A model generated the notes under the pieces. It did not search any database. It was not told where the DNA came from and was given only the letters and a program-made list of their open reading frames with translations. A program made the position numbers and the translations under genes. DNA of 64,000 bases from Antedon mediterranea (Eukaryota > Animalia > Echinodermata): positions 19,093,648-19,157,647 of the forward strand of contig NC_092673.1 in NCBI RefSeq assembly GCF_964355755.1, given 5' to 3'. Positions 20,150-60,593 of this stretch are shown here, piece by piece (position 1 is the first letter of the stretch; every line of letters starts with the position of its first letter).

Positions 20150-20686
20150 CATCAATGAAAATCTTCCTAGCTTTTGTCATTCCATTTTGTTCTAAAACTT
20201 TAAGAAACTCAACCAACTTTGTGAAATCCTTATCAATGATCCCTCTATGTTCAAAGTCCATAATCATACTCCAGCTGTCTTGATATGTCTTTACCAATAT
20301 ATTGTTAAATAACCTGGCAAGTTTTGATACTTCATCCTTCGTAAGTTCCACTCCCAGTTGATAAACCTTCTGTCTGAAAGGTGTCAACATTGATACTACA
20401 TGATCCTTAATATCTTCAGAAGGTTGATTCTCAACGTTTGACTGGAAGCCAAATTGCTTGGTTACTGTTATTGTGTCATATAGAATAGTAAGGTTTGATG
20501 GACTCAAACTTCCTGAGGCTCTTAAATCCTGTAGCAGATCCCAAACACTACTAGCTCTTTCCACCTCTACATTCGATTTTGAAAGATGGTCTTTGTATAA
20601 AACTTTCAATATTTTGAGATATCCAAGTCCATCAAACCATGCTGCTGTATCAGTTAACAGTTGCAGGAATTCATTCTCTGAGATTT
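20150..20686 (-). CDS. Tandem death-effector-domain (DED-DED) exon of the Roco gene
   Basis: EFLQLLTDTA..LKILKVLYKD..ERASSVWDLLQDLRASGSLSPSNLTIL followed by PFRQKVYQLGVELTKDEVSKL..DSWSMIMDFEHRGII. The pattern resembles caspase-8/cFLIP tandem DEDs. Phase-1 acceptor at 20687 and candidate donor at 20149. Confidence 0.75.
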
Positions 20687-23600: not shown

Positions 23601-26600
23601 ACATGGATGTAATTTGTTTACGCTGTTTACGGTTCTACTCCGTGTCCAAAGTTGGATCACCGCCTTTTTAAATGATCTAGCTTCCCGGGCCTAACATTCG
23701 TCACTGATTTACGATGGATAAATTTAATAAAAAATAGGTGTGTTATAAAATAAATAATGAGTGTTTTGTATTCGTTGAATGGAGAGAATATGTTATTCAT
23801 TGACTGCTCTATTTTCGGCTCTGCTTTGTTAAAAATAGTGCAGTCAATCTTTCAACTCATAAAATATTCTTACCATCCATCTCATAAACATTCATTATTA
23901 TACTATACAATGCAATGTTGGAAAGTAATATGTAATTGGTTTTTAAAATCAGTATACATTGTAAATATGCAGACATTTTCAGACATCAAGCAAATCTGAC
24001 AAAAAAATTGAGGAGAAAACTTTTTACATGTATTTTCATAAACTACCTCCAAATAGATAGATAACGTAACTGGTATAGATACATACCAATTTACATGCTT
24101 CAGCTGAAGGCTCCTCTTTACTCGTTTCATCAAAAGAATCTGTTCTTTTAATAGCCATCTAGAAAGTAAAAATAGATGTAATGTTTTGTTATCAGAATTT
24201 AATTTTAGTTTTATATGCATTTAAAGTGGATTCTGACATGACAGATCAGGGAAAGACTAAGCAACAATATTTAACTTTCATAATTTAGTGATATTTATTG
24301 AACATTTGAGATTATATATTACCTTTAACAAGAACTTTCGCTCATCATTCTTAGTAATAAATTTGTCAAGAGACAAAGTCACATGATGATTTTCGTCGAG
24401 GTAAAGTTCTGCATAATTACATGCGAGAATTGGGTTAACTCCTTCCTTTTGAAATTTGTTAAGGAATTCAATAATTAAATACGGAAACAATACGTCTGGC
24501 AGATATCCCTCAAAGTCGTAATAGATAGGTCTGCTGATAGATTGTGAATCATCAGGTACTTGTCTCACTTGACTTGTCTTGATAGCAATTCGCAGTGGCA
24601 CAAAAAAGGATCGTTTTCGAACTGATTTCTGAAATTGTTAATTCGTAACAATGCCATTTAGATTACTTTAAGCAAACTAAAGATACTCTATCATTTAGAC
24701 ATTTTCACTAGAAAGTTTATTCAAACTTTGTCTGAACATTTAAATCCAAACTATTAGAATAATACTTTTTATTCCAAATCTTACATGCATCAAATGAAAG
24801 ATTAAAGAAACATAACCTACTATAGATGTACTTGCCACATCTTGGCTGCTGGTTGTCTTTCTCTCACATATGAAACCGAATTGAATCATCAGTGCTACAA
24901 GGAACTCAAAATTCTTTCCGTCATCAACTTTACTATCTTTCCATAATTTTCGCAACAAGTCTTCTTCCAGTATGCCTTTGTCAAGCTTATCAAAAGATCT
25001 TCTAAATTTAGCGGCCTAAAAAAAACACCAACTATCAAGTATGCGCATCGTATTTTGTGTTTATAACAGTTGTGAGGATGACGGCAATAGATACAGTAAG
25101 CATTTAGAATATAGATGAACCATGTGTTGGTATAATACAGTATCGTGGTTTAACCCTTTCACAGTGCGTAACATTGAGACAGGTGATTTCTAATAAATTG
25201 TAAAAACATACTAAATGAGATCATTTTGTAAATATTTTTGTGGTGGGTAAAAAGTTGGTCTACGGTTTGGAGTAAAAAAATGGTAATTTGCATAGTAATG
25301 ACATCATTACAGAAGACAATATTAAAAAATATAGAGGTCGCTTGTAGTGCAGAAAAATAGTTTTATACCGCACCCGGTAATGATGGTTATATGAAGTTCG
25401 ACGACATGTTTATACCCGGTAATACCGGGTACACGCATTGAAATTAACTGTGAAATTACTCCAAGTTAGTTTGCTTTTCTAGTGCTTCAATTATAATAGA
25501 TTGAAAGCAGAATATTAAAAGTGAAATAATTAAAACTTTAAAAAATTACAGTAAATTACAAATGATGCCTTACAGCATACTTTTATTTTATTTATAGAAA
25601 ATGTTAAGCATCTCTAATAAATTTATCAACTACAAATTCGTTGCTAAAGAATAATAAATTACACAGAACAGGAGTAATTATACTACGGTAACACGTTTTT
25701 ACAATGCAAAACATTTATGAGTATACTTACGGGATATTTTGGGGGAACCACAGTTACAAATTTGGTGACAATTTCAACCAGCCTCATCGGATCTAGCACC
25801 ACTTTATCGCTTAATAATTTGTTGTCAGGCATGTAAACAATTTCACCAAGATCATACAAGAAGTTAAGCAGGCCCGATTTGTTTTTTTCGTCAACAATAC
25901 CATTCTTACTTGTCAGAATTTTGATCTAAAAGAAATAATAATTAGTATTATTCAGAATTAAATAAAAAAATATGAAATTATATTCAGTTTTTGTAACATG
26001 TGGATATTACATGAAAAAATAGTTTGAAATATTGAATTTCAATGGCTAATTACCTTAGTATTTTCAAACACACAATTTATAAATAAAACAATGGCTGCAA
26101 ATATCTGAGATGAAAATATGATTTTGGATATTGTAATCTAATTGGCTATGGACATTTTTTAATTAAAGGGTACTTATATTTAGAATTGTTAACTTTTTTT
26201 TTAGATACTTGATAGAAACTTGCGACTTAATATTTTCAAAAATGTTCTTTTCTGAAAAAAAGAACAATTAACATTTACCTCTTCTAAAGGACACAAAGAA
26301 AAGAAGAGCTGTTTTTGTCCTCTTAGATCATGTAGATCACATCGAAAACGCATCCACTTTAAAGGAAAAGGCTGTTCTAATGCTTTCATAAGTGTATCAA
26401 TAACTTGTTTGAGATCACTAAAGCTCTTATCTGTTGTTGGTTGGCTGTTTTCAATGGCAAAATATTTGTGGTAGACATGATTTCCATATGGTTTTGTTTT
26501 AAGAACATCTTGAATAATTTTAAACACCTTTTCTGCCTGTTTGTAAATAATTTTAATAACAGTTTACGCCTATATCACAATAAGAATGTGTCAATTTGGT

Positions 26601-29600
26601 AATTTATTTAAAGTAATATTTAAAAACAGTTACAACTGCAATGTATCTTTGGTTGTGGCTATTTATAATAATATAGAAACAAAAGAAGTATTAACCTCAT
26701 CATTTTGCTGTTTTTCAGTCCAGCCAAGCTTACCCTTGTGTGTACCCACAATAAGGATAGTTGGTTTGTCAACTTCATTTTCCTCATCTTCTTCCACAAT
26801 ACGACTATGAGAATAAACTGACAGGATGTAAGATAATATGAACTGGAGATTGGTCCAATGATGTTGAAATTTCCTCTGAAAAGAATTACAGAACAATTAA
26901 CCACAGTTAAACTTAAAATGCTTAGTTTTTAAAAACCTTATCTGGAAGGTATGAAATATTAAATCTTTTAAAATAGTCAAACTGTTCTTATAAATTAGAA
27001 GACTTGTTCAATCACAATGCCTTACTGCTGCCATGCTCTAGAAATACTTACTCCAGATGAATCAATGAAAGTAGCAAGATCATCCAAGGGTTTACTGAGA
27101 TCAAACACAACAATATATAGTGCTTGAAGTGTCATGAACATCTGCAAAAATATTTAAGTATTGACTGATTAATATTCTTGAAGGCCTTTTGACAACATAT
27201 GAACAAATATTATTTTTAATTGTATGTGGACCTTAAAGATGTATTGTCCCCCAAAAACATGAAAAATGAAGATTAATTAAATCAGAATTTGAATATTTAT
27301 TTTGTAGTTTTAATAAAGTTAATCACTTCCATTGAAAAAAAAAAACGAAAAAAAATAATGTTTTCACTTATAAAATGACAAAATATAAAAATCCATTGGC
27401 TGGTAGCCAATTTGACAATTTTTTGCTTTAAATTACATTTTTTCAGGTTATATAAATTTTTTTTTTCGATCCAATTTGTGGTCAAAGTGGATAACTATTA
27501 TGTTACATTAAAATGGAATATTAAAAAAAAAATTTTTAAGAATTATTTTTTCAGGGGACAATACATATTAATATAATTCAATTCAATTCAATTAAAAAAC
27601 TTTATTATCCCCATGGGGAAACTCTGTTGGCCTTTTCAAAAGGCCAACAGACTTTCATAAAGGTAAAAGGTAAAGGTATTAATAGTTGTCCTCAAGCTTA
27701 ACTGAAAAGTGAGCTTGACCACTGACACTGACCAACGGCAGCCAGCAGTGAAGCGCCTACCAGATCAGCACAACGGGAGACGTCCAACTATACCTTGGCC
27801 ATACAATCATGTTAGTCTGTACAGAAACCTACTTACCCGATGTAGACCATGGTATATTAATTGCCCCCCATGGTCCCAGATGTTGAATGTTTCTTCCAAA
27901 GTCTCCTCCTTATTTTCCTCAACTTTCTTGATTACATCCTTATCTAATTGTTGATCTGTATCAAATGGAACAGCTTGAGTAGCTGTATCAGTACCTGTAG
28001 TGGAAACAAATTTTTTGGTCATTCCACAAACAGCGTAACAAGCATAATTTTATTTCAAACATTTTAATTCATCATATTTAATCAGTCAGTTAAAAAGTTA
28101 CTATGAGTATAGTTGTCTTCATTATCATCATGAGCTTTCGCACCGGGAAGGTAAGCGAAAGGGGATGGTAGATATGAAAGGATACTTTAATATGTACAAA
28201 CTATTAATCTGCACATTTGTATAAGCCCAGTATATATTTATGTATATTATATAGTAGGTGTAAACTGTGAATTCACTTTGATTCTTCTAGATTCATACAA
28301 AAAAATAAGCATCTTTGTCCCTTTTAAGGTTTTAATTAGGTGTTTTAGAAGTTCATCTTTGTTTAACTTTGCTAACTAAGAAACATGCCCATCAAGCCTG
28401 CATGTACAGCGTCTTTGGACTGTCTAGGAGTGGGATGGCCGCTGCCATGTTTTCTCTAAATTACCGTCACCATAATTGTTACACAGATAGGTTGCCTCTA
28501 AGTTATAAATCTGATAACATAATTTTATACTTCTTTAACTCCATTAAATAGGAAAATCTAATTAATAATCTTATTATTTTAAATAACTATGAACTTAAAT
28601 ATGTCCCCTTGAAAAAATAATTCTTACAATTTTTTTTTAAATATGCAATTTTAATGTCACCTAATAGTAGACCAAAAATTGGATTGAAAAAAAATGTATT
28701 TACCTAAAAAACTGTAATTTTAAGCAAAAAATAGTCAAATTGACTGCCAGCCAATGGGTTTTTGCTTGAATTTAACCATTTATTTTTTGTTATTTTATAT
28801 GTGTTTCCTTTTTTTCTACAGAAGTGATTGACTACAAAATAATCTATTCAAAGTCTGATTTTAATAATCTTTATTTTTCATGTTTTTTGGGGACAATAAA
28901 TGTTTAATATGACAGAAATTGTTAAACTTATTTAGTGCTTTTACTACAAAAATGTAAGAATAATTAGAATTTAAGGTCAAGTTACATACCATCATTGTTG
29001 CCATGGTTATTGTAGTCAACAACAATACCATCCTCATCATCATCATCATCTACAGGTGGTTTCATGTCAATCTGACACATAAAACAAAAACAATATATAG
29101 ATAGAAAAAAGAAATAAATGTTTATTCAAGTTAAATACAGTATTGTTTACAATTTAATATAAGAGAAAACTAATATTATTTACTCTCAAACAAAAAACCA
29201 AATACTTTTTAGAGTAAATTTTAAAAGGATTGAAGCAAAAAAAATGAAATAGCTGCTAATAATGCCTCATTGATTCATTTAGAAAGAAAGCCTAAGTGAC
29301 TGGTTTGCAATAGTCCTGTAGGTGCTACTTTATTCATTACACTATTACTGACATACGTTTACATTTTTCTTTTCTCTCAATTTGTCAGTGACCATTTTTG
29401 TATACTGTTTTGAAGGATTACCTGTAGAGAAAGAGAAAGTGTGTACATATTATTTCAGTACATACGTTCATATGTGACTATACTTTGGATATTTTACTAC
29501 TGTCGAAGTAAAATTACAATTACAGTACATCATCATAAAATGTAACATACAGTAACTTGCGCGTTATAAAGGGATCATAGAGTAACAATTGTGAAAATGT

Positions 29601-32600
29601 GACACCATACTACAGTTGTATGCATTGAATTCAATTCTATGTCTCCATTTCATTGTGAACTTGTCTGTGTCTATGATAATAATTATTATTGATAATATTG
29701 TTACATAACGTATGATGGTGGGAAGAGTAATATGCTAAATGTATTCATGTTTACCACTATCAGCTTTAGCCTCTGTCCATGTTGTGCTTGCTGTTCTTAT
29801 CACCGCTATGCCATCTGTAACTACATGCTTTTCCTCAAATCTGGCAAAAATATTTGAAACCAACTATGAACTTCAGTCATTTTAAGTACAGGTACTGTAA
29901 AACATGCACTTTTCTCCTTTTACTTCAAAACCATTTAAATATATTCATTAATTATACATTTAGGAAGTCAAGTTATCCGACCATTCGTATGATCTTTTTT
30001 TTAAATACAAGCCTAAAAGTAAATTCTATAATCAATAGAAAATTTGATGGTGTTATGATTATTGTAGAAACCGATTTATATATTTATAGACGTTTTTATT
30101 CAACTATTGTTATCTATCACTGCAATATTTAAAAAGTGGTAGTTTATCAAAAACAAATCAATAAAAGTTGGCTGGCTTGTAATTCTTAGTTGACTCAAAA
30201 ATATTTTGTAATGTTCATTTCACTGTCCTACTACTACTACTTACTCTTTTCCAAGACAGGCATTGATGAGGCATGTTTTACCCACTCCTTCCTGCCCAAT
30301 TACTTTAAGCATTCCAAGATTGACTGGAACGGATCCATCTTTCAAGGCTTCATTGTATGCTTTCTGAAAATCTAATTCACGTGCAGCAATATCTGAAAAT
30401 TGAATCAAGATTTTAATAGATTTTTTAAACATCTGGAGTAAATAAAGTAAAAAAAAACTAGAATTAGGTTATATGCATTGATTTAAATAAAGATAATTGA
30501 TTTTTAAAAGATATATTGATTGATTGATTTTCTCAGAATCTTTAATTATTTATAATATAGGATCTTGCTAACGCGAATACAATAGCCGGTATCACAATCC
30601 GATCAAAGATCCCTCCGCGTATAATGTCATACAACATTGTTACATAGTAATAAAGACATTACTTACTTTTTATCTAGATTTCATTATAAATTATGTGTAT
30701 AATCTATACACTAACAAATAAAATTGAACAAACAATACGGATAATAAAAAAAAATCTTATTTCCTTTCCCAATGTTAGACTCGATCTCGGTACCTTGAAT
30801 GCCATAGACACGAGCACAGACCACCGAGCCATACACAACTGACTAAAAGTTGTAGAAAGATTCCTCCGTGTATTTACTATGCAGTAACCACTTTGGCGCA
30901 GATAGATTATTACATAACGCATTGAATTATAATTTTTTACTATGATGACATCTTTAAAAATGTTAAAAAACGATGCACTGTCAAACTATATACTTTTAAC
31001 TTTAATATATGAACTTTTATTTTGAAGGAAGAAGTTAAAGTTTGTTATTTTGGCCTTAGAAAATGTCAGAAAATTTTTGATTGTCGAAATAAATTTTTTT
31101 GAATTTAAAATGCAATTAACGATGACTTTATCAACTTTTGTACTCTTAATTTCATAATAAATCATACATATGATACATACACTTCAAGGAAATGAAATAA
31201 AAAATATGTGTTCCCGAGCATTCTTGGAAATGGAAACAATCAACTGTTATTATTTATGATAAATAAAATCTCTCCATTTGTTATTTGTTATCAGTTGGAC
31301 ACTTTTTCGCATTTTTACAGTACCGCTCAGAAATGATTTTTTAAATAACATTAGCGTCTAATTCTCTCTTTACTGAAATCCCATTTTAATCACAATTCTG
31401 TTAAATTATATATAGATACATTCATAAAACATACAGCAGCTCTTATTCTTAAACTTACCACTCTCTGGCTTAAGAAGTTTTGTTTTCTGTTTGTCACTTG
31501 TCTGTTTCTGAAATTGCTCATCAACAGTACTTGGTAAATCTAAAAAAATGCACAAAACCAAAATATTACATATTATATATTTTCATAAAAAACACTATAT
31601 TAAAAGTCATAGCTTTTTTTTTTCAATGGTATAAGGTTATATAAGGCTCTGTGTGATACAAAGCCTTACAAAAACTTGTGGGTGATTGTGTACAAGCAAT
31701 CATTCATTCTGAATAATAATAATAACAATGTATATTTTTAACTACAATGTATACAGTTAACAACTACAGTTATTAATTTAAATTATGTCCTAAAAAAAAT
31801 TGTGGAACTCAAACTCATCCAAACATATAGACGTTTGCAACATTTTTTGACAGCGATCCTGAATCTAAATCGTTGAAATTATAGCAATATACGGTTGATT
31901 AGCATGGTTTCAATGGGTAAAGTGCAAATAAAGTAATCCTGAAATGAATAACTGGTATGATTCAGAATGAGGCAGTAGGAAATGCGATTAAAAACATCTA
32001 TTGTAAGTTTTCAATATGCTTTGAACTTTTTGAATGTTTTTATTTATATTCTGTTTTATGACCAGAAATCAATTTTGTTTTTATACCTGTTTGTCAAAAC
32101 ACAATAAAGATAACTCGAGCCCAACCATGGTTTAGGCTGATGTCAAACAATTTTGTCAATATAGACCTGGAATTGCACCTTTAAAGACTTACAATAAGGG
32201 CGCTTTTCTGGTCCTACTAAAACACGCTCAGAAAACGTGCCCACTGTCCCCAGTTGTTAGTTCCCCATTATGTGTATACGCTACACTTTTGTAAATATTA
32301 ATTGTTAAAAAATTAAAAATTTAAACATCAGCCTAGAATGTACAATGTGTCATACTTGCTTGCTTGCATAATTGATTAAAAACTCTAAATGTTTGTATAA
32401 TATAAATATTTGTAAAACATACACTTTATACACTTGGTAGAGCTTAGTTATACTTTGAAGGGCTTGGTGTTTAGAAGAACACCGCCCCTCCCCCCACCAC
32501 CAATGTAATGAATATACAGTACAATTAGTTATTAGCAGTACAGCCAAGGACTATTTTAGCCTATTGAAGCAACGTTTCAGCTGGCGCTAAATTTGAAAAC

Positions 32601-35600
32601 AAAATAAATATTTGGTAAGCCTAGCCCAGTATATATATATATAGGGGCATGTCTCTAATTCCAATTCTTGGCAAAATATTTTTAAACATCATTAACACTA
32701 GAATAACTAACCACACTGAAAACAATAACATTATTTAACAAGAACAATCGGGTTTTCGCAAGGGATTCCGCACATTAGATAATATTTTCATTCTTAACAG
32801 CATAATTCAAAAATATCTACGTAAAAAAAAAAAAAGGGGTTGAATATTTAGTTGCTTCGTTGATCTAAAACGTATAAATCATAATTTTCTATTATTCAAA
32901 TTAAGAATAGGCGTAAATAATAATATATATGACGTCATATATATTATTATTTAGTTTCCAATTATTAGCGCATGTAAAAATAGGAAACTCATTAACGCTC
33001 CTATTTGAATGTTCAATTGGAATACAACAAGGGTCACCCCTGCCATTATCTCTATTTAATATATTTATGAATTACTAGCTAAATCAAAATAACGAAAAAA
33101 TACCATTCGGGGATTGCTTTATAAACCATCTGCTATATGCTGCTGATTTATTACTATTCGCAGACACAGTAAAGGCTTACAAAATTTAATAATTATATTG
33201 GAAATATTTTGTGACACATGGGGTCTTAGTGTAAATGTAAACAAATAAAAAATAATGGTATTTAAAAAAGGTGAAAAATTAAGAAAATATGAAAAATGGT
33301 ACAGTATTACATAAACATTAAAATGGAAGTTGTTAAATCGTATACTTACTTGGAAGTGGTTTTCAATTCAAATGGTAAGTGGAATAACACAACTGAACAC
33401 AATTGTCAAAAAGCAAATAATGTACGTACTATTTACAATCAATTAATAGCAAAACAAAATACCTACCAGAGAATATATGGAAACACATTTTTGACAAAGT
33501 TTTAACAATTATAATTTACGGGAGTGAGACATGGGGCTTTTCGAATTTATCACCAATTGATCATTTACAGACACGTTTTTCAAGATTTATTTTAGGCATT
33601 GGAAACAGCGCACCCAGCGTGGCTGTCAGATCAGAATTAGGCAGACTATCCTTAAACATTGATTGCTTTATTTCTATTATTCATTATTGATTACAAATCA
33701 TTGAAATGGATAAAAATAGATTTTCTTTTAAATGTTACACGTTTCAACTAAGAAAAACTAATAAAAATGAACATTGTTGGGCTAAACAAGTGAACGATTT
33801 GCTTTGTTCCACTGGCTATGGCTACGTCTGGTACGATCAGAAAGTATCAAATATATAATAAGTTTATTAATGATTTTAATAAACTATATAATAATAAATA
33901 AACTGCGAGCTACTTAGGTAAAGTGCATAATTGTTTCTCTCATTTTATCATAAATTACCATAAAACGTACATCTAAGACAAGGAATAACCTGGTTTAATG
34001 TTTTTAAAGTAATATTGCATTATTTTTACAAAACGTCGAAAATTGTAAGGAATGGGTCTTTGAAATAGATTTTTAACTCTTACTTAATGGTTTAAACTTG
34101 TATGTCAATACTAAGAAAGTTCCTTAGACTATAAAAGTTTGTTCACTTTTGTCATACATTACTATCAGATTTGGTTCTGTATTCTCAACCTTTTTTAGTA
34201 GGCCTACACCAAGCCAAGGATAAATATTTGCAATTAAATTCAATTTGTTTATGCAATATTCTATAGATATTGAATAAATATTCTCCACACACATATTAAA
34301 AATACATAAAATAATAATTATATAAACATGTAAGATAATAATTAATAAAACATAGTATGTGTGGAAGGAAACCTTAAAAGTATAACATTTTAAGCCTAGG
34401 CTCCCAGAAAAAAGTAACAAAAAGTTGGGAAGAAATAGAAACAAAATATGAATGCAATATTCTATTATTCTGTGTGTAAGTACTCTACTGAAAACTCATT
34501 AATTTATAACAACTTTTACAATTATTTAAGCGTTTATGCTCAAATATTACTTATTATTTTGTGCCTATTTGCATGGGAAGTCATAAGATAATACAATTGT
34601 AGGAGCCAAGGTAAAATACATTATGTATGATGCTTAATTTTACATACAGAGAAATAGTATTCTTAAGCTGGCTTAAAAGTATGTGAAGAAAATTCATTCA
34701 TTGTGGAAACAAAAAATGGGATTTAACAAGAGTAGTTAGTCACGTGCAACGCCACTCTACAACTCACTATGTCGGTCGGTTGGTAAACACTAACTTGAGC
34801 AAGCGACTGCAGCCATCGATATGGCCTTGTTAAATTCAATATTTATCTCCTCCTATTGTAAATTGTTTGCCTCGATTGCAAATACATATTTTAAATAATA
34901 CCATTATATATAAAATAGATTACATTTAAAAAAAAAATATTCTACATTTACATTTATATGCAATTAATAAAGATCAAATATTCCTTAACAATGCACATCC
35001 CATGTATTTGTCTATACAGGATTTTTTATTAATTTTATTAATTTATTTTTTGTATGTCTTTTTTGTAACTAGCTTGGGGTTTCTTGGAGGTCTCTTTCAT
35101 CTTCACATCTTTATTTTTTTTATGTGTAATTGTTTTGATGTATTGATGAATAAAGAGATTGATTTGATGTGAAAAATGATGTTCCATAAAAAAAACGTGT
35201 GGCTAAACTTATTCAATATTGTTAATTCAAAGTTTTCATTTTTGTGTATTTTTATTGTAATGGCAAAATAATTTTTCTAATTTATTTGCAATTTTCAAAT
35301 CATAAAAAATAAGGTTTTTACATCTTGCAGTGACATATCACAACTTCCATGTTTACTACAATCCCAGTGGATTATTTAATCTATTGCTACCTGAACATGT
35401 GAATGATATCATAAATGCTAATTTTCTAGTTTTGATTCTTCTTCATTTGGGACAAGAAATCAAATCTTTATCGCTTGTAATGAAAACTAGTTGATTCCAA
35501 AATTTTAATAATTAAAACTTCACTTACTTTTAAAGAAGTTTAAAATTTCAGTTTTTCTCTGGTCCCCTATCCACCTGTTACTTTCTAAAACAGATACAGG

Positions 35601-38600
35601 TGTATTTCCATCCTATTAAAAAAATAGGTTTAGTTACTATTAGTAGTTTTTCAGAAATTATTGATATACAATATAACACACTCTATACTCATCACATACA
35701 TACAGTATTATATCATGTCTCAAACATTTACCATCTAGAGATTGGATGAAAGAGCATCACGTGATAACACGTAGATTTACTATTTTTTAACATTGGTTGT
35801 AAATTAGGACGTGAATAGAAATTACTATTTGCTAATAAATGACATCAACTTGTACAGTGCGCCACCTATAACTCATGTATCCAAACCAAAACTTAAACGC
35901 TGCCGTTTATAGTCTACCGCCTTCAACATTGAAAGATGGGGGAGAGAGAGAGAGATAAATTGAATAAAAGTTTACTTTGGAACAGTAGGTAGATGTGTTA
36001 AAATGTTTGAGCCATAATATAAAACAACAAATAGTTTTACTATAAACTTTCAAAGCAAATAAGATTTGGATACTATCCAGAAACAAATGAAATAGGCCTG
36101 TTAAGTGACAGACCCAATCCTTCAAATTGTGATAACATTCTGAAGAAACTTTGCACAGTTATTCATTAGGGTGTCAAAAATATGAAATGGAAGGGTTGCA
36201 CAAAATTTGGTCAGGGGAAAGCCGCCATTTTGGATTTCAAAATGGCGGACCCAAATTGTTCACTTTTCAGGTATATCTCTGCTAAATAGGCACCTAGAGT
36301 TCTGAATTTAGGTGCAAATTATATGGTAATGGGGTCACCAAAGATATTGGTATAACTAACATTTTAATTGCATGGCGGCCATTTTAGATTTCAAAATGGC
36401 GGACTTAAAATTTTCACTTTTTAGGTATATCTCTGTTAAAGAGGCACCTAGAGTTCTGATTTTAGGTGCAAATTATATGGTAGTGGGGTCACCAAACATA
36501 CTGGTATAACTAACATTTTGATTCCATGGCGGCCATGTTGGATTTCAAAATTTCATTTTTCAGGCATATCTCTGCTAAAAAGGCACCTAGAGTTCTGATT
36601 TTAGGTGCAAATTATATATTAATGGGGTCACCAAACATATTGGTATAACTAACATTTTGATTGCATGGCGGCCATTTTGGATTTCAAAATGGCGGACTTC
36701 AAATTTTCACTTTTCAGGTATCTCTGCTAAAAAGGTACACAGAGTTCTGATTTTAGGTGCCAATTATATGGTAATGGGTAACCAAACATATTGGTATTTA
36801 ACTGACATTTTTATTGCATGGCGGCCATTTTGAATTTCAAAATGGCGAACTAAAAATGTTTCAGTACGGTACCTACAGTTATAATTTTAGGTACAAAGTA
36901 TAATATAGTATTGAGGTCAACAAACATATTGGTATAACGTCTTTGATTGCATGGCGGCCATTTTGAATGTAGCTCAACCCGTACTGGCTTTACACTATTT
37001 GTGTTGTTCATAATTACATGCATTTAACACGGACACTTATTGTAGGTCACATTTTCCCTGGCAACCACACAGCTCTGTGCATCGTAAATCACTCTTTCTG
37101 CATTTACAGCATCCAAGATCACAGTCGGTGTGTCCACAGCGAATTAAAACCTTTGTGACATCTGAAAGTTCCGGCAATGAACTGCAAGCTGGACAAAATT
37201 TGTTGCCGTCCTTCCTCTATCCCCAGTTCGCTGGGTCCTGTTAAACCCAGAATGCATCTAGACAGTCGTACCACTTCCTGGCTTCCGTTTCACATGTTCT
37301 CTTAATGCCGCAGATGTTGGGGGATATTTTCAATAGTCTTTCTCTTGTTGTAAAAAGATATCGTCTTGCATCATTAAATGTTCTGCAGTAGACATAGTTA
37401 CAACAAACTGTTCTAGATAATCTGTGTCTGTTTCACTAACATGCCCTACAGACAATTACATCCTCTCAAAAACTGGAGTCATATATGGCATCTTTTTCAA
37501 AGTCTCGGTAGCCTAAATGTAGCTTTACCTTTTCCTTAAACAGATGAAGTTCTATCACAACCGCTAATGGTATGAAAGAACAAGTAAGCGGCTGATGCTT
37601 GTGATCCAAGAGAAGTAATCTTGTGTATTGAGAAACGGTCTTTTCTACAAGCCAGAAAGTGGTACAACTGTCTAGATGCATTCAGGGTTGAACAGGACCC
37701 AGCAAACTGGGGATGGAGGAAGGACGGCAACAAATTTAGTCCAGTTTGGAGTTCATTGCCGGAACTTTCAGATGTCACAAATCGCTGTGACACACCGACT
37801 GTGATCTTGGACGCTGTAAATGCAGAAAGAGTGATTTATGATGTACAGAGCTGTGTGGTTACCAGGTTTGAGCTACATTCAAAATGGCCGCCATGCAATC
37901 AAAGACGTTATACCAATATGTTTGTTGACCTCAATACCATATTATACTTTGTACCTAAAATTATAACTGTAGGTACCGTACTGAAACATTTTGAGCTTGC
38001 CATTTTGAAATTCAAAATGGCCGCCATGCAATCAAAATGTTAGTTAAATAGCAATATATTTGGTGACCCATTACCATATAATTTGCACCTAAAATCAGAG
38101 CACTGTGTACCTTTTTAGCAGAGATATACCTGAAAAGTTATTGGGGTCCGCCATTTTGAAATCCAACATGCAATCAAAATGTTAGTTATACCAATATGTT
38201 TGGTGACCCCATTACCATAATTATAATTTGCACCTAAAATCAGAATTCTAGGTGCCTTTTTAGCAGAGATATACCTGAAAAGTGAAAATTTGAAGTCCGC
38301 CATTTTTAAATCCAACATGGCCGCCATGCAATCAAATGTTAATTATACCAATATGTTTGGTGACCCCACTACCATATATTTTGCAGGTAAAATCAGAACT
38401 CTAGGTGCCTCTTTAGCAGAGATATACCTGACAAGTGAAAATTTGAGGTCCGCCATTTTGAAATCCAAAATGGCGGCTTTCCCCTGACCAAATTTTGTGC
38501 AACCCTTCCATTTCATATTTTTGACACCCTAATGAATAACTGTGCAAAGTTTCAAAATGTTATCACAATTTGAAGGATTTGCCTAAAATATGCTCCTTAA

Positions 38601-41600
38601 CATGCCTACTATGTATAATCCCTGTACATTACCTTCTTTGCAATGTTGCTGGTGTATAATACTGACAACAAACATTATGTGAAATTGGGTTTTTTTTTGT
38701 CAACCCAAACCATAGCAAAAATTACTGCTAAATAATGTGGTAAATAATCATAAATGTCGACTATTGATAAATGAAAACAAAATATAATATCTTACCATGG
38801 ATCAAATGTAGTATAGTGTCATTAAAATCTACTTACTGTACAATATCAATCACAAAATTTGAACATTAATAATTTAATACATATTTTATAAAATTGTACA
38901 AACAAATGTTTAGATGTTAAACATCATGTATGAGGCCAATATAAGCAGTTAAATGAATTTACATATAAATTTAGGTAATGGGAAATTTCAGTAAATTAAG
39001 TGCAACTTCTAGAATTTTTACTCAATGGTAGAGAAAGTTGGTACATACTTTTGGTACTGATTTTTAACACCCAATGAAGCCATTATCATAATTTAGCTAT
39101 TAAGATATTAGATATTAACGATTAAAACAAATTTAGGTTAAACCATTTTCCTCAATGAAGATCATATCATATCATGAAGCCTGATACCATCCCATCATCA
39201 AATGTACCAAGACAGGAATTTGGTGAACAATACCATGCAATAAACAAAATTAAGCTAATTCTCTGGGTGACAATTATATTTGAATACATAAATTCCATCA
39301 TATCTGTATTCATTTGCTTTGTGTACAGTGCAATTTCAGTTATTTACCAAAATTCATGTATTCGAGAACCATCTGTGGGCACTTACTAGTATATAACATT
39401 TTAACTGGCAACTTTATAGAATCATTTTTTCCAAAAAGTCATAAGATAAGATACGGCACTGTTTGAAAAGAATAATTTCATGTTAAATTTCTTTTTCCAA
39501 TTGCATTGCTCAAACATTTTTAGATTTTGGAAACCACTATGAACTAAACATTATTTACATTTCTCTTCCATTTGTGACAAAATGTTTGCAAAAAAAAAAT
39601 CTGGAAAAGGATCTCTTTAAGGCCATATTCAAACTGTAATTAGCTGGATATACTGACAGAAGTATTTTTTTTTGGAAGGTAAGGGAGGGAGCAGGTTATT
39701 AACAATTACTAATTCTTTTTTATTAAAATCAGATTCTATTAATTTTGTTAACAATAACACAAACATATTTGTTTGCTATTTTATTATTTGTCAACATACT
39801 GTAGTTGTCCAATTTTATTTCATATTTATAATTAATTAGACCATTTTCAATTGTTGTTATCTTTACAGCTACATATGAGCAATATGTATTTATTTTATGG
39901 TAAAAAATATTTAAACAAAATTATACTAATTCACCTGAATATAAAAAATTACAAGTAGATTGTTTTTGTTCATTAAGAAAAAAGATATATGTTATTTGAT
40001 GGATAACTGTATACTTTAAATCAGGAGTGGAACCAGAAATAAACATTATATATAATTGCTCTTTTTGATGACAAATTCAAAATGGAACTGAAATCAGGGT
40101 ACCCAGGAGCGGAACCAGAAATAAACATTATATATAATTGCTCTTTTTGATGACAAATTCAAAATGGAACTGAAATCAGGGTACCCAGGAGTGGAACCAG
40201 AAATAAATCAAAAGCGGGAGCAAAGATTACTTTTGGCTGGGGGTCATTTGCTTTCTGAGCAATTTAGTTTGTTTCAAATGGTTTAAGCACATAACTATAG
40301 TATAGTCAATTTCCAATATACTAATAATCATAATCATGAAGTTTATAAATACTGACAACAGACATTATGTGAAATTGTTTATCTGTAAATAAAAAAAACA
40401 GCAATAATTACAGCTAAATAATGTGGTAAAAATCCTATTTGTTCTTATTGATAAACAAATAGAATGGTTTACTGCAGAGAATGGTAGCCTACTACACTAG
40501 CAAATACCTGTGGATTACCTTATTTTGCAATGTTACTGCAGATCCATTATGCTTTAAGAGACAAGTCACTATATCTAAGGTAGGATTTACTGTACTCAGA
40601 TATTCATGTAATGGAGTGTTCCCATCCTGGAAAGGAATAAAAATAATAAAGTTTATAAATACTGACAACAGACATTATGTGAAATTGGTTTTCTGTCAAT
40701 ATAAACAACAGCAAAAATTACAGCTAAATAATGTAGTAAAAAATCATATTTGTCATTATTGATAAATAGAATGGTTTACTGCAGAGAATGGTAGCCTATT
40801 ACACTAGCAAATCCCTGTGGATTACCTTATTTTGCAATGTTGCTGCAGACGCATTATGATTTAAAAGACAAGTAAGTATATCTAAGGTAGGATTTACTGT
40901 AATCAGATGTACATGTAATGGAGTGTTCCCATCCTGGAAAGGAATAAAAATAATAAAGTTTATAAATACTGACAATAGAAATTATGTGAAATTGGTTTTC
41001 TGTCAATATAAACAGCAGCAAAAATTACAGCTAAATAATGTAGTAAAAAATCATATTTGTCATTATTGATAAATAGAATGGTTTACAGCAGAGAATGGTT
41101 ACCTACTACACTAGCAAATACCTGTGGATTACCTTATTTTGCAATGTTACTGCAGACGCATTATGCTTTAAAAGACAAGTAGGTATATCTAAGGTAGGAT
41201 TTACTTTACTCAGATATACATGTAATGGAGTGTTCCCATCCTGGAAAGGAATAAAAATAATAAAGTTTATAAATACTGACAACAGACATTATGTGAAATT
41301 GGTTTTCTGTCAATATAAACAACAGCAAAAATTACAGCTAAATAATGTAGTAAAAAATCATATTTGTCATTATTGATAAATAGAATGGTTTACAGCAGAG
41401 AATGGTTGCCTATTACACTAGCAAATCCCTGTGGATTACCTTATTTTGCAATGTTGCTGCAGACGCATTATGATTTAAAAGACAAGTAAGTATATCTAAG
41501 GTAGGATTTACTTTAATCAGATGTACATGTAATGGAGTGTTCCCATCTTGGAAAGGAATAAAAATAATAAAGTTTATAAATACTGACAATAGAAATTATG

Positions 41601-44600
41601 TGAAATTGGTTTTCTGTCAATATAAACAGCAGCAAAAATTACAGCTAAATAATGTAGTAAAAAATCATATTTGTCATTATTGATAAATAGAATGGTTTAC
41701 AGCAGAGAATGGTTGCCTACTACACTAGCAAATACCTGTGGATTACCTTATTTTGCAATGTTGCTGCAGACACATTATGATTTAAAAGACAAGTAAGTAT
41801 ATCTAAGGTAGGATTTACTTTACTCAGATATACATGTAATGGAGTGTTCCCATCCTGGAAAGGAATAAAAATAATAAAGTTTATAAATACTGACAACAGA
41901 CATTATGTGAAATTGGTTTTCTGTCAATATAAACAACAGCAAAAATTACAGCTAAATAATGTAGTAAAAAATCATATTTGTCATTATTGATAAATAGAAT
42001 GGTTTACAGCAGAGAATGGTTGCCTATTACACTAGCAAATCCATGTGGATTACCTTATTTTGCAATGTTGCTGCAGACGCATTATGATTTAAAAGACAAG
42101 TAAGTATATCTAAGGTAGGATTTACTTTAATCAGATGTACATGTAATGGAGTGTTCCCATCTTGGAAAGGAATAAAAATAATAAAGTTTATAAATACTGA
42201 CAATAGACATTATGTGAAATTGGTTTTCTGTCAATATAAACAGCAGCAAAAATTACAGCTAAATAATGTAGAAAAAAATGATATTTGTCATTATTGATAA
42301 ATAGAATGGTTTACAGCAGAGAATGGTAGCCTACTACACTAGCAAATCCCTGTGGATTACCTTATTTTGCAATGTTGCTGCAGACACATTATGATTTAAA
42401 AGACAAGTAAGTATATCTAAGGTAGGATTTACTTTACTCAGATATACATGTAATGGAGTGTTCCCATCCTGGAAAGGAATAAAAATAATAAAGTTTATAA
42501 ATACTGACAATAGACATTATGTGAAATTGGTTTTCTGTCAATATAAACAGCAGCAAAAATTACAGCTAAATAATGTAGTAAAAAATGATATTTGTCATTA
42601 TTGATAAATAGAATGGTTTAGAGCAGAGAATGGTTGCCTACTACACTAGCAAATACCTGCAGATTACCTTATTTTGCAATGTTGCTGCAGACGCATTATG
42701 CTTTAAAAGACAAGTAAGTATATCTAAGGTAGGATTTACTTTACTCAGATATACATGTAATGGAGTGTTCCCATCCTGGAAAGGAATAAAAATAATAAAG
42801 TTTATAAATACTGACAACAGACATTATGTGAAATTGGTTTTCTGTCAATATAAACAGCAGCAAAAATTACAGCTAAATAATGTAGTAAAAAATCATATTT
42901 GTCATTATTGATAAATAGAATGGTTTACTGCAGAGAATGGTAGCCTACTACACTAGCAAATCCCTGTGGATTACCTTATTTTGCAATGTTGCTGCAGACG
43001 CATTATGATTTAAAAGACAAGTAAGTATATCTAAGGTAGGATTTACTTTAATCAGATGTACATGTAATGGAGTGTTCCCATCCTGGAAAGGAATAAAAAT
43101 AATAAAGTTTATAAATACTGACAACAGACATTATGTGAAATTGGTTTTCTTTCAATATAAACAGCAGCAAAAATTACAGCTAAATAATGTAGTTAAAATT
43201 TTAAATTTTTAATTTCAATGAAAAGAATTTTTTTAATTATTATGAAAATATATATATATTTTTAATACCTCATTGATAGATGTCACAAGATCTGGCTGTG
43301 TTCTACAAATGTGTTTAATTGTTTGAAAATCATTCCTATGCAAAGCTTCTTCTAATTCGTTCCTGTTTAAATGATTATAAAAGGTTATAATGAACTGTTA
43401 CATTATTTTATGAAAATGACGATTGATGGAAATAATATCATCACTAGAATTTAATTCGTCACTTTGACGAATTATAGGTGATCATTTTTATCATTTTACT
43501 GATATTAATTTTTTTTTTTACATGCACGTACGTTAACATACGATCGGAAAATGTTGATGTATGCCATCCTATTATACGCTTATAGTGCTGAGTTGTGCCT
43601 ATTATATGCCATATACAATAATGTACAGTATATAATGTATATCTATATACAGTGTAGCATAGGTGAAATTATGGGACACATCATGTTCTAATTTTTTGGT
43701 ATGATGGAATTATCAAAATAAACTCGAAATGGCAATTTCGAAAGATAATAAATTGAGCAAATAAATATAAGAATTGGAAGCGAATTTGGCACATAGAAGC
43801 GCTGTGCGCGCTCTTTGAAATTTGTATAACTTTGACGAAAAAGATGAAAAAACTACTTTTTAAATTCAACTGGCCATATGTTAACGTCACAACATCCGAT
43901 AGGCTTGATTTTTATATGAATTCATATCTATATTTCATCAGCTTTCATAATAAATTGTAATCATCAAGGTAACCGTCAATTCTGAAGAGCTGTAAAATAT
44001 TCAAATTTACGGCGAAGGTGAAATTACACGACCTACATTATTCAAGTTTATACGCGTGATGACGTCATCGAAATAAAAATAGTGGGAAATCATGAGAAAG
44101 TCAATTAATTGAGCAATCACATACTAAAATTTGAGCGAAAATCGGGTACAAAATAACAGAGATGCGTTCTATTGAATGTGACAAAATATGACGAAAGAGA
44201 AAAAAAACTTAATTTTAAATTCAAGTGGCCATTCGATGACGTCAAAACATTTTGTACGTACAATGTGTACATGTATTCATATCTACAACTCAATGGCTTC
44301 CAGAATAAGTTAAAAAAATTGGGGGTCATCGTGCATTCTGGAGAATTATTTTCATTTTAAAAATGCCTTATTTTTCACCATTTTCAGAACTTTGATGCAA
44401 TTATTTTGCTCATTTTGTCATTTTGAACCTGCTCGTATAGCGTTATTTTAAGTCGGAACTGACTCAAATTTGGTGAATGTACTAAGGATGGTGAGTAGAA
44501 TGCGATTTGTAAAAAAAAATCGTATTTTTACGCTTTTTAAGTATCGCTTTTTAAGTGGAGCACTGTGGCGCAGTGGTTAGAGCATTGGACTTGCAATCAA

Positions 44601-47255
44601 GAGGTTGTCGGTTCAAGCCCCGGCTTGGTCACTGCAGTGTTGAGTCCTTGAGCAAGATTCTTTATCCACATTGTTCCTCCCCACCCAGGTGATAGAAATG
44701 GGTACCGGTATGTAAAAAAGTACTGGGAAGGTAAATCAGACTCGTTTGTGCGGGAGGAGTGGCGTACCCCCCACAACATACACACTTAGTGGAGTCTGGC
44801 CCAAACGCTATGGAAATGGAGATGGGCACCACGGCCGTTAGCATTAGCTTAGGTTTCGACTTTACCTTTTTTTTTTTTTTTTTTAAGTATCGCGCGCGCA
44901 AAAATTATTTTTTGCGCAGTAATTTTTTGAAAAACGCAAATTCATTGATCAAAACTTAATTTTGAACTTTTTAAATTTTTAAAGAGCGATTTCACGCGCA
45001 TGACCCTACGTACGTATTCGTTTTTTATTTGGTAATATTTTTAGCCTTGACCTGAAGTTTACGTGTAGTGAATTTCATTAATATGTGATAATGAATTATG
45101 GAGATATGATTGATAATGTGATTTCACAAAATGGCGTATAAATGACGTCACGGATGAGTGATCACGCTGAAAAGCTTATTAGGATTAAGTTATATTATTT
45201 GAAAGATACTAGATGGCACGCTCGCTTCGCTCGCGTACCATCTAGGGGTGCTCACAGATGGTTCTCGAATACAGTAGAATCCACGGACGGGGACTTTTTT
45301 GGGACACTAAACAAAAACGGAAGTGTCCCCCTAATTCAGAAATAGAGACAACAAAACCAATACTGGATTCCATAAAGGACAATTAATTTATGTGGATTAA
45401 AGAAATTAGGGAGAAATGGAAATGTATGTACGGGAATTGGGCGGCACGTGGTGGTGGTGATGGAACCGCAGTAATAAAGTTGATTGTATTTATATATTAT
45501 AAGAACCAAACTAAATAAATAGACCTAGACATTCTGCGAAATGGAAATCGGAAATTCAAGCTCCTATTCAGTGAAAAATTAAACTGTAGTCTACCTAAAT
45601 ATTTAGGGCAAATCATCGGTTGTGGTGTTGAAATTCCTGTAAACATTTGTGTGAACCAAACTGGGTCGAATTTCTGTCATGAGTACTGATTTGTTGGCCT
45701 GTGATTTATGACGCCTAAGGGATCTATCTAGACTTATTTTTTAGAATAATGTACGTACCTGTCAGATACAATTGTCTTGTGTCGTATAATAAATAAGTAC
45801 TGTAATAGTTACTGAAGTTACTATTACAATCTCGTCAATGAAAACACGAAAATGTATATGCACTTACTTATGAAAACGTATACAGTATTATACTCAGTTA
45901 TTGAAACAGTATGTTTTAAAAAAAGTTTCGTTTGTCTGTAAAATGATGTAATCAAGCTGTTTACATGAGTCTTAATTTATAAGCACATCAATAATAAAAT
46001 AGTTTATCTATCCTGTAATTGGCGAGATTATGGTCGCTGTTGAATGAAATAAAGCCAATCGGTATCATATTTGTACAGAAACGTTTTCGCGGCCGAAGGG
46101 TGTAACCTAAATTCGTTGTATTATCGTCAAAAACTAACTGTAACTAAACTTACATAGAAAGTAGGGTATCATAAATTTGGCCTTAGCACTCGGGGGAGTG
46201 GCTAAGATGAAGTCCGTGGGACTACTAAATATAAATTGTAATGAACCTCGAGGGACATAAATAGGAATATTTCATGTTTCATTATCAATGTATAATAAAT
46301 GGAAACTGTTTACCGATTCAAATAATAGAAATTGGTTTTTAACATATTCCGAACCTATTGCAAGTTTATTCTCAAAGGGCCCATATATTTACCTACCGTA
46401 TGTGTTAAACCAAGGGCTCATAAATTTACCTACAGTACTTGTGTTAAACCAACTCTGGCAGACTGAGAGATTGGGATGTTCCATTCATCGCAAATCAATA
46501 CATTTGTATAATCGTATATTAAATCTATCAAAATAGTATTTTTTAAAGAAAATCGGCCTGTCTTCAACATTATGATGGTGTACTCTAGCTGTTCAACCGG
46601 TTTTCAGCTATTAAAAACAATTATCGTAGGAGGAGATAGAAAAATGCGAAGCCTCCTCGCATTTTTTTGGCGGGTATTTTTCAAGATGGACATCCATTAG
46701 ACAGTGTATACCACGATCGGAAAACACCCCTATTTGGGGCAAATCGTTGAACCTAAATTCGTTTTAATCGTCAATAACTAATTATCTAACTCAATTTAAT
46801 TAGTAAACAGGGTTACATCAGGCGGTTAAAATCAGTACCGAAAGTACGAACCAACTTTACATACCATCGAGTGAAAATTCTAGAAGTAAGGCGCGATTTA
46901 CCGAATTTTGCCCTTACGTAAATTTATATATAGATTATGAAATTTTGGTAATCATTGACATTAAACTTTTTGAGATAATTGTTACACAAAATAGTGTACA
47001 GAAACAATAACATTAAAGATTTGATACAATAACAATAGCTGATCATTTTATTCTAAATGATCACCTAATTAAATTTGATGAGAATGGGCCCTTTAATTGT
47101 AATATTTATGTCGTAATCTTTTAAGAAAATTTGAAAAGTAATTTTTCTCAAAATAATATCTTAAATTGTTATCTTTTTCATTTAAACTATAAATTAATTG
47201 AAGGTTAATCTGTTTGATTTGAAATAAAAAAAATTAAAAAAACGTACCTTTCCAT
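20150..47255 (-). CDS. Multi-exon kinase-less Roco protein: ankyrin repeats - Roc GTPase - COR - tandem DED (about 1210-1290 aa to the end of the DED exon; 3' end uncertain)
   Basis: Hand-spliced GT-AG exons, phases all compatible, no stops: 47248-47255 (ATG), 43269-43362, nine 108-nt ANK exons in 40519-43082 (two with mutated acceptors), 35528-35612, 31459-31539, 30245-30392, 29755-29840, 29357-29421, 28990-29071, 27837-27994, 27052-27141, 26696-26875, 26279-26536, 25731-25925, 24821-25015, 24323-24628, 24087-24158, 23152-23365, 20830-20862, 20150-20686. Motifs DGNTPLH, GQEGVGKT, TDGI, WDHGGQ, VGTHK, LNFLYDLGEI..VVLDP. Confidence 0.88.
21040..22912. repeat. 88-bp intronic minisatellite, about 21 copies (variant units at the right end)
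   Basis: ORF track repeats every 88 bp; unit gtaagaggaatgaagatatcacagctaatagcagcatgttgtaacaatgtatagattatcaataatgattctgatagtactactactg. Confidence 0.97.
23152..25925 (-). CDS. COR domain exons of the Roco gene
   Basis: LLNFLYDLGEIVY..LSDKVVLDPMRL, GILEEDLLRKLW..FLVALMIQFGFI, FFVPL, YYDFEGYLPDVLFPYLI and the Cys-rich end RCIPCRC are typical COR signatures following Roc. Confidence 0.85.
26279..30392 (-). CDS. Roc (Ras-of-complex) GTPase exons of the Roco gene, with an acidic insert between G2 and G3; the last exon runs into COR
   Basis: G1 LKVIGQEGVGKT (30245-30392), G2 VTDGI (29755-29840), G3 FNIWDHGGQLIYHGLHRMFMTLQALYIVVFDLS (27837-27994 and 27052-27141), G4 ILIVGTHKG (26696-26875), G5-like YFAIEN and PLKW (26279-26536). 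Confidence 0.9.
27237..27568. mobile_element. MITE family A copy (opposite orientation)
   Basis: ttaa|agatgtattgtccccc...ggggacaatacat; the body is the reverse complement of 18123-18466. Confidence 0.8.
28595..28905. mobile_element. MITE family A copy (degenerate)
   Basis: tgtccccttgaaaaaat...ctgccagccaatgg...catgttttttggggacaata. Confidence 0.75.
32700..33900 (+). mobile_element. Degraded non-LTR retrotransposon reverse-transcriptase fragment (RTEX/CR1-like)
   Basis: Frameshifted motifs EQSGFRKGFRTLDNIFILNSII, GIQQGSP, NHLLYAADLLLFA (YADD equivalent), YGSETWG, RSELGR. Confidence 0.85.
36093..38608. mobile_element. Foldback derivative of an Academ DNA transposon
   Basis: TAGG..CCTA termini; inverted arms of about 1 kb with aaaatggcgg subrepeats; internal remnants FFHTISGCDRTSS.GKGK, QDPANWGW..LPEL and CKCRKSDLRCTELCGC. 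Confidence 0.85.
38620..38790 (-). pseudogene. Relic of the 307-bp ankyrin unit with most of the exon deleted
   Basis: ccctgtacattaccttctttgcaatgttgctg joined directly to intronic atactgacaacaaacattatgtgaaattgg; acceptor and TPLH codons are missing. Confidence 0.7.
40021..40206. repeat. About 88-bp tandem duplication, about 2.2 copies
   Basis: caggagtggaaccagaaataaa recurs at about 40022, 40105 and 40186. Confidence 0.8.
40340..43195. repeat. 307-bp tandem repeat, about 9.3 copies (108-nt exon plus 199-nt intron)
   Basis: Exact 307-bp periodicity of 'ggattaccttattttgcaatg' and 'gtgttcccatc'; intronic parts are near-identical between copies. Confidence 0.97.
40519..43082 (-). CDS. Nine tandem phase-0 ankyrin-repeat exons (108 nt, 36 aa each) of the Roco gene
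   Basis: Exons 42975-43082, 42668-42775, 42361-42468, 42054-42161*, 41747-41854, 41440-41547*, 41133-41240, 40826-40933, 40519-40626. Consensus DGNTPLHV[HY]L[IS]KVNPTLDILTCLL[NK]HNASAATLQNK, bounded by tttccag| and |gtaatc. * marks acceptor cag changed to caa. Confidence 0.9.
44557..44884 (+). mobile_element. tRNA-derived SINE, apparently full length
   Basis: A box TGGCGCAGTGG, B box GGTTCAAGCCC, core gtccttgagcaag...cacccagg...aaatgggtacc, tail actttacct(T)n, flanking duplication tttttaagtatcgc. Confidence 0.9.
45208..47070. mobile_element. Possible Helentron-associated/unclassified non-autonomous element
   Basis: 5' hairpin ctagatggcacg..cgtaccatctag and 3' stem-loop tgatcattttattctaaatgatca; no coding remnant recognised. 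Confidence 0.3.
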
Positions 47256-47910: not shown

Positions 47911-48373
47911 TTAAATGTTCATATCTCCAACTCTGTAGCCTGAGGTTTTTAAATGTTCATATCTCCAACTCTGTAGCCTGAGGTTATTAAATGTTCATAT
48001 CTCCAACTCTGTAGCCTGAGGTTATTAAATGTTCATATCTCCAACTCTGTAGCCTGAGGTTATTAAATGTTCATATCTCCAACTCTGTAGCCTGAGGTTA
48101 TTAAATGTTCATATCTCCAACTCTGTAGCCTGAGGTTATTAAATGTTCATATCTCCAACTCTGTAGCCTGAGGTTATTAAATGTTCATATCTCCAACTCT
48201 GTAGCCTGAGGTTATTAAATGTTCATATCTCCAACTCTGTAGCCTGAGGTTATTAAATGTTCATATCTCCAACTCTGTAGCCTGAGGTTATTAAATGTTC
48301 ATATCTCCAACTCTGTAGCCTGAGGTTATTAAATGTTCATATCTCCAACTCTGTAGCCTGAGGTTATTAAATG
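47911..48373. repeat. 38-bp minisatellite, about 12 almost identical copies
   Basis: Unit taaatgttcatatctccaactctgtagcctgaggttat, head-to-tail with no spacers. Confidence 0.97.
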
Positions 48374-60480: not shown

Positions 60481-60593
60481 ATTATTAGTTTCATTATTTC
60501 TTTTTGTTATTGCAGTCCATTGTTTATTTGCATCGTTATATAATTGCATTAATGTTGAACTATAAACCACTGCAACATCACCTCTACTTTTTC

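Follow-up and report, generated by a model that had tools for sequence, protein, structure and literature searches.

Near-identical ankyrin exons, probably multiplied recently, in a likely ROCO gene of the feather star Antedon mediterranea

In DAPK1, a single chain combines ankyrin repeats with Roc-COR and a death-fold domain. In the leucine-rich-repeat (LRR) ROCO genes of brown algae, to the extent covered by the parts of two papers drawn on here, each repeat is encoded by an exon of its own (Zambounis et al. 2012, PMC3341825; Teng et al. 2024, PMC11378527). I analysed a stretch of 64,000 nucleotides from the feather star Antedon mediterranea (assembly GCF_964355755.1, contig NC_092673.1, positions 19,093,648 to 19,157,647 of the forward strand), hereafter called the window, which contains a tandem array of nine ankyrin exons. 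These exons form the ankyrin domain of a likely ROCO gene and were probably multiplied recently, exon and intron diverging alike; the preferred interpretation is a young, near-neutral expansion of exons within a modular family of candidate immune receptors. For the question of how invertebrate deuterostomes, which are not known to have antibodies, diversify their intracellular sensors, a Roc-COR family with exon-sized ankyrin modules, a hypervariable loop and interchangeable tails of death effector domains (DEDs) is a concrete and testable candidate.

Bases 40332-43198 of the window form a tandem array with a period of 307, each 307-bp unit consisting of a 108-nt exon and a 199-nt GT-AG intron. 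The nine exons (40519..43082, minus strand) have their 5' ends at 43082, 42775, 42468, 42161, 41854, 41547, 41240, 40933 and 40626, running from copy 1 (43082-42975) to copy 9 (40626-40519), and all eight spacings are exactly 307 bp, without indels. Every exon is 108 nt long and in phase 0, and encodes a single ankyrin repeat of 36 residues (DGNTPLH...LQNK). None of the nine contains a stop or an indel, which is weak evidence given the small number of changes overall. The order of motifs given in a preliminary description of the array (VHLIK, VYLSK, VYLSK, VHLIK, VYLSK, VHLIK, VYLSK, VHLIT, EYLST) was recovered unchanged on the minus strand. The Pfam Ank profile matches copy 9 above the cut-off (E 1.3e-4) and copy 1 below it. 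The repeats have the TPLH motif and the helix-loop-helix solenoid of ankyrin repeats, the fold being taken from the domain of a paralogue, P0013, which matches ankyrin structures.

Three units depart from this regularity. Copy 9 (40519..40626, minus strand) is a diverged terminal repeat, with EYLST, Val20 and Gly28. Copies 4 (42054..42163) and 6 (41440..41549), on the same strand, share an AA in place of the AG acceptor; the next AG lies one base downstream and would lead to a frameshift and a stop at codon 10, so that the copy 4 exon is likely skipped or degraded. Since the two units differ at only 1 of 307 bases, the AA acceptor is a single event that was subsequently duplicated. It was sought in public data, namely contigs, compared with one unit, from four runs that carry two species labels and belong to three studies, and was absent from the 40 of 49 rows listed. 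Beyond copy 9 lies a dead relic unit (38617..38772, minus strand), in which a piece of intron is fused to the final ~20 nt of an ankyrin exon with the donor that follows, the acceptor and most of the exon being deleted (joint 42994-43114). The repeat region therefore includes inactivated exons of two kinds, two with AA acceptors and one deleted. The deletion junction of the relic recurs in public runs X5 and X6 (organism B), which indicates that this type of locus predates the present copies.

The preliminary description had counted seven variable exon sites among copies 1-8, all residue-changing, and had proposed diversifying selection on the binding surface. The count is correct: 7 of 108 sites vary, in codons 9, 11, 12, 20, 25, 28 and 31, and all seven change the residue. 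However, about 77% of exon sites are non-synonymous, so that seven replacements out of seven give P = 0.163; the excess over chance is no stronger than P = 0.117 and 0.083 when kappa is raised from 1 to 2 and 4, and 9-12 all-replacement sites would be needed for P < 0.05. Nor did the introns reveal an excess, the density of non-synonymous differences (7/83 = 0.084) being close to that of intron differences (15/199 = 0.075; Fisher P 0.81) and the mean pairwise divergence of copies 1-8 being 0.033 at non-synonymous sites versus 0.030 in introns. The description had seen only one synonymous change, whereas copy 9 holds three (codons 20, 23 and 28), which are all those of the array. Over all nine copies, the non-synonymous (pN) and synonymous (pS) densities are 10/83.3 = 0.120 and 3/24.7 = 0.121, a pN/pS of 1.0; copy 9 compared with copies 1-8 gives pN 0.080, pS 0.121 and intron 0.099. 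One of the replacements is a Leu-to-Pro change in helix 2 and another is a CpG transition.

The public runs yielded 37 exon alleles among the 40 of 49 rows listed. Eleven, each confined to a single gapped and divergent contig in its run, were dropped. The 26 retained comprise 18 non-synonymous and 8 synonymous changes, or 20 and 6, depending on the codon background, with a pN/pS of 0.67-0.99; this is a rough check that pools alleles, paralogues and species, and it reveals no excess of replacements. The preliminary description had named a dN/dS no higher than 1 in a larger data set as the result that would refute its proposal, and the values obtained lie between 0.67 and 1.0. Diversifying selection on the nine copies is thus not upheld, and the pattern, as first stated, is small-number noise. 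The strongly reduced summed depth of contigs in mid-exon relative to the intron flanks was rejected as evidence, because depth is not copy number.

It had also been proposed that the variable codons cluster just after TPLH. Codons 8-12 hold three of the seven (P 0.040 with the window fixed), but the value for any window is 0.56; with copy 9 included, they hold four of nine, with P 0.009 and 0.19, respectively. Codons 9 and 11 are, moreover, perfectly linked in all nine copies. Helix positions were carried to the window repeats by alignment from an AlphaFold2 model of the P0013 ankyrin domain, which was built from a 52-row alignment and has a predicted local distance difference test (pLDDT) score of 90 (40 for a single-sequence fold). 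In that model helix 1 spans repeat positions 5-11/12 and helix 2 begins at the Leu of TLDI. Codons 9, 11 and 12 would accordingly lie in helix 1, as the preliminary description had it, but helix 2 would hold codons 20 and 25, with 28 and 31 beyond it.

The repeats of DARPins (designed ankyrin repeat proteins) vary at the residue before T and at the two after TPLHLAA, which, counted from TPLH, are codons 3, 11 and 12; HMMER places a two-residue gap right after the His, and this register is my own reading. The codon numbers used here and the position numbers of the source cited next are presumably offset by 2. In the portion of that source used here, ankyrin positions 2, 3, 5, 13, 14 and 33 determine specificity (PMC1261162). 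The proposed placement on the binding surface is therefore right in part: codons 11 and 12 are canonical binding positions, but only two of the seven variable sites are of this kind. As far as the available parts of three papers go (PMC1261162, PMC9611651, PMC8229355), the family resembles DARPins and the canonical ankyrin surface in varying at codons 11 and 12 and at hairpin positions 1 and 3, and differs from DARPins in having a repeat of 36-38 residues in which extra sequence separates the two helices; in addition, four of the seven variable sites of copies 1-8 fall outside the canonical positions. All 23 repeats of P0013, P0039 and P0142 have Tyr at codon 9, and contigs with Tyr9 account for 97-100% of the summed depth in each of the four public runs. 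Codon 9 is thus a conserved site at which the His9-Ile11 class, with the AG acceptor lost in two of its four copies, has the look of a local, derived variant.

The relations between the units help to explain the alternating motifs. Copies 1, 4, 6 and 8 differ from one another at 1-5 of 307 bases but from copies 2, 3, 5 and 7 at 8-14 of 307. Val28 is common to copies 3 and 5, each of which precedes a copy with an AA acceptor. The copies are mosaic, the four-gamete test failing for 19 of 78 informative site pairs. I infer that a duplicated two-unit block, together with gene conversion, built the array. Duplication of a dimer implies that the alternation reflects a few events that were copied rather than many independent ones, and the VHLI and VYLS classes would represent one old divergence amplified as a dimer. 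In the part of the work on fungal NLRs (Podospora HET-E/NWD) considered here, near-identical repeats are likewise homogenised by unequal crossing-over, mosaic copies occur, and exchange between paralogues is suggested, as it is for the feather-star family (PMC13449251). The same source describes a NACHT or NB-ARC core instead of Roc-COR, and reports repeat-number polymorphism and positive selection, whereas the feather-star array has near-neutral rates.

The gene around the array was joined by hand, with Pfam run on single exons. The resulting model has 28 exons between 47255 and 20150 on the minus strand and an open frame of 1286 residues, in the order N-cap, nine ankyrin repeats, C-cap, Roc, COR and tandem DED; all donors are GT and all acceptors AG except those of copies 4 and 6. 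Its putative first coding bases (ATG GAA AG followed by a GT donor, 47248..47255) were picked by hand. The ankyrin domain is bounded by an N-cap exon (43269..43362; 41% identity to the P0013 N-cap) and a C-cap exon (DGNTPVSVLESN..., 35528..35612; 71% identity to the P0142 C-cap). Linker and Roc GTPase exons follow (26279..31539), with the P-loop GQEGVGKT in exon 30392-30245 and WDHGGQ in exon 27994-27837, then the COR exons (23152..25925; Pfam COR-A E 2.6e-7 on one exon), and finally a single exon for the tandem DEDs (20150..20686; two stretches that exceed the Pfam DED cut-off, E 9.8e-11), all on the minus strand. The Roc and COR exons are, respectively, 96-97% and 94-95% identical to those of P0001 and P0004, both of which pass the Pfam Roc and COR-A cut-offs, and the DED exon is 79% identical to that of P0133. 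With Roc directly before COR and both the P-loop and WDHGGQ motifs intact, the model is, judged by its sequence, a ROCO protein.

The 12 proteins matched by one Roc/COR exon are all from Antedon mediterranea, and a single 36-Mb contig carries 11 of them; the models of those 12 contain no ankyrin repeats. That the array belongs with the GTPase is nonetheless supported by two other relatives: P0142 has two such repeats, the C-cap and Roc in one model, and P0013 displays the complete ankyrin-Roc-COR-DED order. A local profile found ankyrin-like matches in 11 of the best 150 relatives of P0001, those examined coming from Antedon, Anneissia, amphioxus and a hemichordate, and a protein search with copy 9 returned one relative among 4 candidates. 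Annotated multi-repeat domains of the same type occur in P0013 (8 repeats) and P0039 (13 repeats).

Pairwise identities on these automated gene models differ from module to module. The framework of the array is 81% identical (up to 94%) to the ankyrin repeats of P0013, which lies on another contig and whose Roc, COR and DED are only 27-30% identical to those of the window (Roc 28%); the corresponding values for P0142 are 61% for the ankyrin framework and 77% for Roc. Conversely, P0001 and P0004, with a Roc-COR identity of 94-97%, have DED pairs that are only 40% and 22% identical, and the nearest DED pair, that of P0133 (79%), accompanies a Roc of 67%. These values suggest that ankyrin and DED modules have been exchanged between paralogues. 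Separately, P0133 and P0148 have tandem DEDs before Roc, where ankyrin repeats would stand, a layout indicating that the N-terminal module is interchangeable in this family.

At the level of the family, the segment after TPLH does vary. In P0013, the 7 columns (of 38) that follow TPLHxYL hold 15 of the 35 extra residues (permutation P 0.001 for that window, which was picked after seeing the data, and 0.024 for any window), and the length of this segment ranges from 5 to 20 residues across 31 repeats. Among 32 listed contig pieces (of 327), ten end at the boundary of codons 14 and 15, nine of them continuing with unlike sequence, and eight have their start, as counted from the opposite side, in codons 7-11. 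By these sequence comparisons, the stretch behind TPLHxYL (codons 11-17) is hypervariable, both in its residues and in its length, and takes in canonical positions of ankyrin binding. The site named in the preliminary description, and the general notion behind it, thus stand for paralogues and public contigs, where this segment varies more than the rest of the repeat, and not for the nine copies from which they were drawn. Relaxed constraint also yields variable surface loops, so that hypervariability is no proof of selection. Seven loose contig ends in run X8, which is presumed to be RNA and was used as contigs, pass from ankyrin exon to ankyrin exon on both sides; splicing between ankyrin exons thus occurs in family members, as far as such contigs record it. 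A 19-nt exon-donor pattern found at 16 loci in metagenome contigs was set aside as chance, 16 of 16 matching over only 19-27 bases.

Three alternatives to a young, near-neutral expansion have to be weighed. That diversifying selection currently acts on the helix-1 binding residues of the nine copies would account for seven replacements at seven sites, for the coincidence of codons 11 and 12 with DARPin variable positions and for the hypervariability of the same segment in paralogues, and public contigs add likely Arg11 and Asp8 alleles. The chance probability of 0.08-0.16 and the equal density of replacement and intron differences speak against it, as does the location of four of the seven sites outside helix 1, one being the Leu-to-Pro change; one change is a CpG transition, His9 stands where all 23 repeats of relatives have Tyr, and two of the four His9-Ile11 copies have no AG acceptor. 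I regard this explanation as unlikely, although several observations weigh against the near-neutral reading that I prefer. No synonymous variant occurs among copies 1-8 where about two are expected; the fixed-window clustering is nominally significant (P 0.040 and 0.009); a whole-exon ratio of about 1 also fits a purified framework combined with positive selection on a few codons; and the spliced junctions of X8 carry Leu8-Tyr9 or a Tyr1 start, and so represent other alleles or paralogues rather than the nine exons of this gene.

A second possibility is a functionless, minisatellite-like expansion, in which arrays form regardless of content and most copies are skipped or decaying. Exon and intron do diverge alike, the two dead acceptors, the Leu-to-Pro change and the deleted relic look like decay, and the window holds many non-coding-looking arrays, one of them within an intron of the gene. 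Yet all nine exons lack stops and indels (a weak argument, with so few changes), multi-repeat domains exist in P0013 and P0039, that of P0013 being a confident ankyrin solenoid (pLDDT 90), and ankyrin exons are spliced to one another in family members; this explanation is accordingly quite improbable. Assembly errors behind the copy differences or the copy number would be conceivable in view of the difficulty of assembling near-identical tandem units and of the absence or rarity of His9 and Ile11 in the four public runs. They can hardly account, however, for eight spacings of exactly 307 without indels, for the recurrence of both alleles across copies at 13 of 22 variable sites, or for the presence of Lys25, Val28, Val31, Thr12, Val20 and Glu8 in public contigs as well, and are very improbable as the explanation.

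Under the preferred reading of a young, near-neutral expansion, unequal crossing-over and gene conversion would act, probably recently, on the 307-bp exon-plus-intron unit, and because every exon is in phase 0, copies could be gained, lost or skipped in frame. Over the longer term, diversification would affect codons 11-16, where helix 1 ends and the next loop begins, and these codons likely set ligand specificity. By analogy with related proteins, ligand binding to the ankyrin solenoid would switch a dimeric Roc-COR GTPase, and caspases or adaptors that carry DEDs would be recruited through the tandem DEDs, which makes the gene a predicted candidate for an intracellular immune or cell-death sensor. 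A broader hypothesis, which I advance tentatively, is that of a modular crinoid ROCO family in which ankyrin exons are amplified, skipped and swapped, DEDs are swapped and the loop is positively selected, an animal counterpart of the brown-algal receptors. If true, this would be an undescribed crinoid receptor family with a hypervariable, length-variable loop and exon-sized modules shared among distant ROCO paralogues.

The locus works like the exon-shuffling genes of brown algae but is not a member of that group, since its repeat is ankyrin and not LRR. The likeness, within the parts of the algal papers used (PMC3341825, PMC11378527), extends to a repeat domain that precedes the Roc-COR core and has each repeat in an exon of the same phase, to paralogues in clusters, to inactivated repeat exons without splice sites and to candidacy as immune receptors. 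The feather-star gene differs in its ankyrin repeats, tandem DED and animal host, in that introns belong to the repeated unit, and in a whole-exon pN/pS of 0.67-1.0 where site models detected positive selection in the algae. It shares with DAPK1 and with invertebrate ankyrin-Roc-COR-Death proteins, of which P0235, P0242 and P0259 are examples from amphioxus and a hemichordate, the presence of ankyrin, Roc-COR and a death-fold domain in one chain. However, no kinase was found in the model, which starts with the ankyrin N-cap and has DEDs in place of the Death domain; near-identical one-repeat exons and a longer, variable loop between helices 1 and 2 set it further apart, and it is not a DAPK1 orthologue. 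No description of a feather-star ankyrin-Roc-COR-DED family was found in the open-access literature, subscription journals lying outside the search, nor of a feather-star ROCO family in the accessible parts of PMC8195603, PMC6321704 and PMC2575513; the supplements of PMC8195603, which list invertebrate domain architectures, may bear on novelty.

Several minor features surround the gene. Downstream of the DED exon, an 18-bp repeat (18884-19089, minus strand) encodes GAGVSS ten times in a frame open to a GT donor, and is possibly a low-complexity exon. Two small candidate 3' exons (17940-17925 and 17514-17480, minus strand) encode a polybasic stretch and then CKLL-stop, an ending that we take to resemble a prenylation (CaaX) signal. 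A hydrophobic candidate exon at 17248 holds an in-frame stop; several relatives (P0008, P0010, P0133) have hydrophobic, membrane-anchor-like C-terminal tails. Upstream, 60597-61118 (minus strand) is the last exon of a neighbour and encodes another two DEDs in tandem (Pfam DED E 2e-5), which share 68% identity with the DED tail of P0001 and 40% with the type of the array gene; the exon is probably the 3' end of a tandem paralogue. A 16-codon piece just upstream of the gene (49676-49723, minus strand) is 88% identical to the C-terminal end of P0008, and is possibly the last exon or a remnant of another family member. Outside the echinoderms, P0014 of the abalone Haliotis rufescens has a similar design, with 28 near-identical ankyrin repeats of 33 residues, position 11 as the most variable column and a caspase-family Pfam label.

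Young tandem arrays are abundant in the 64 kb (12332-16648, 21040-22916, 47911-48373, 55801-57565 and 59581-60481), with non-coding-looking units of 38-88 bp that are 93-99% alike; one (88 bp x 21) lies inside an intron of the ROCO gene, and their number points to a region prone to repeat expansion. A palindromic element (36145-38553), with long inverted arms of 92-95% identity and internal subrepeats of 139-154 bp, is inserted in the intron that separates ankyrin copy 9 from the C-cap exon and looks like a non-autonomous DNA transposon. Open frames at 249-737 (plus strand), 1459-1019 and 2072-1854 (both minus strand) resemble transposon-derived coding pieces.

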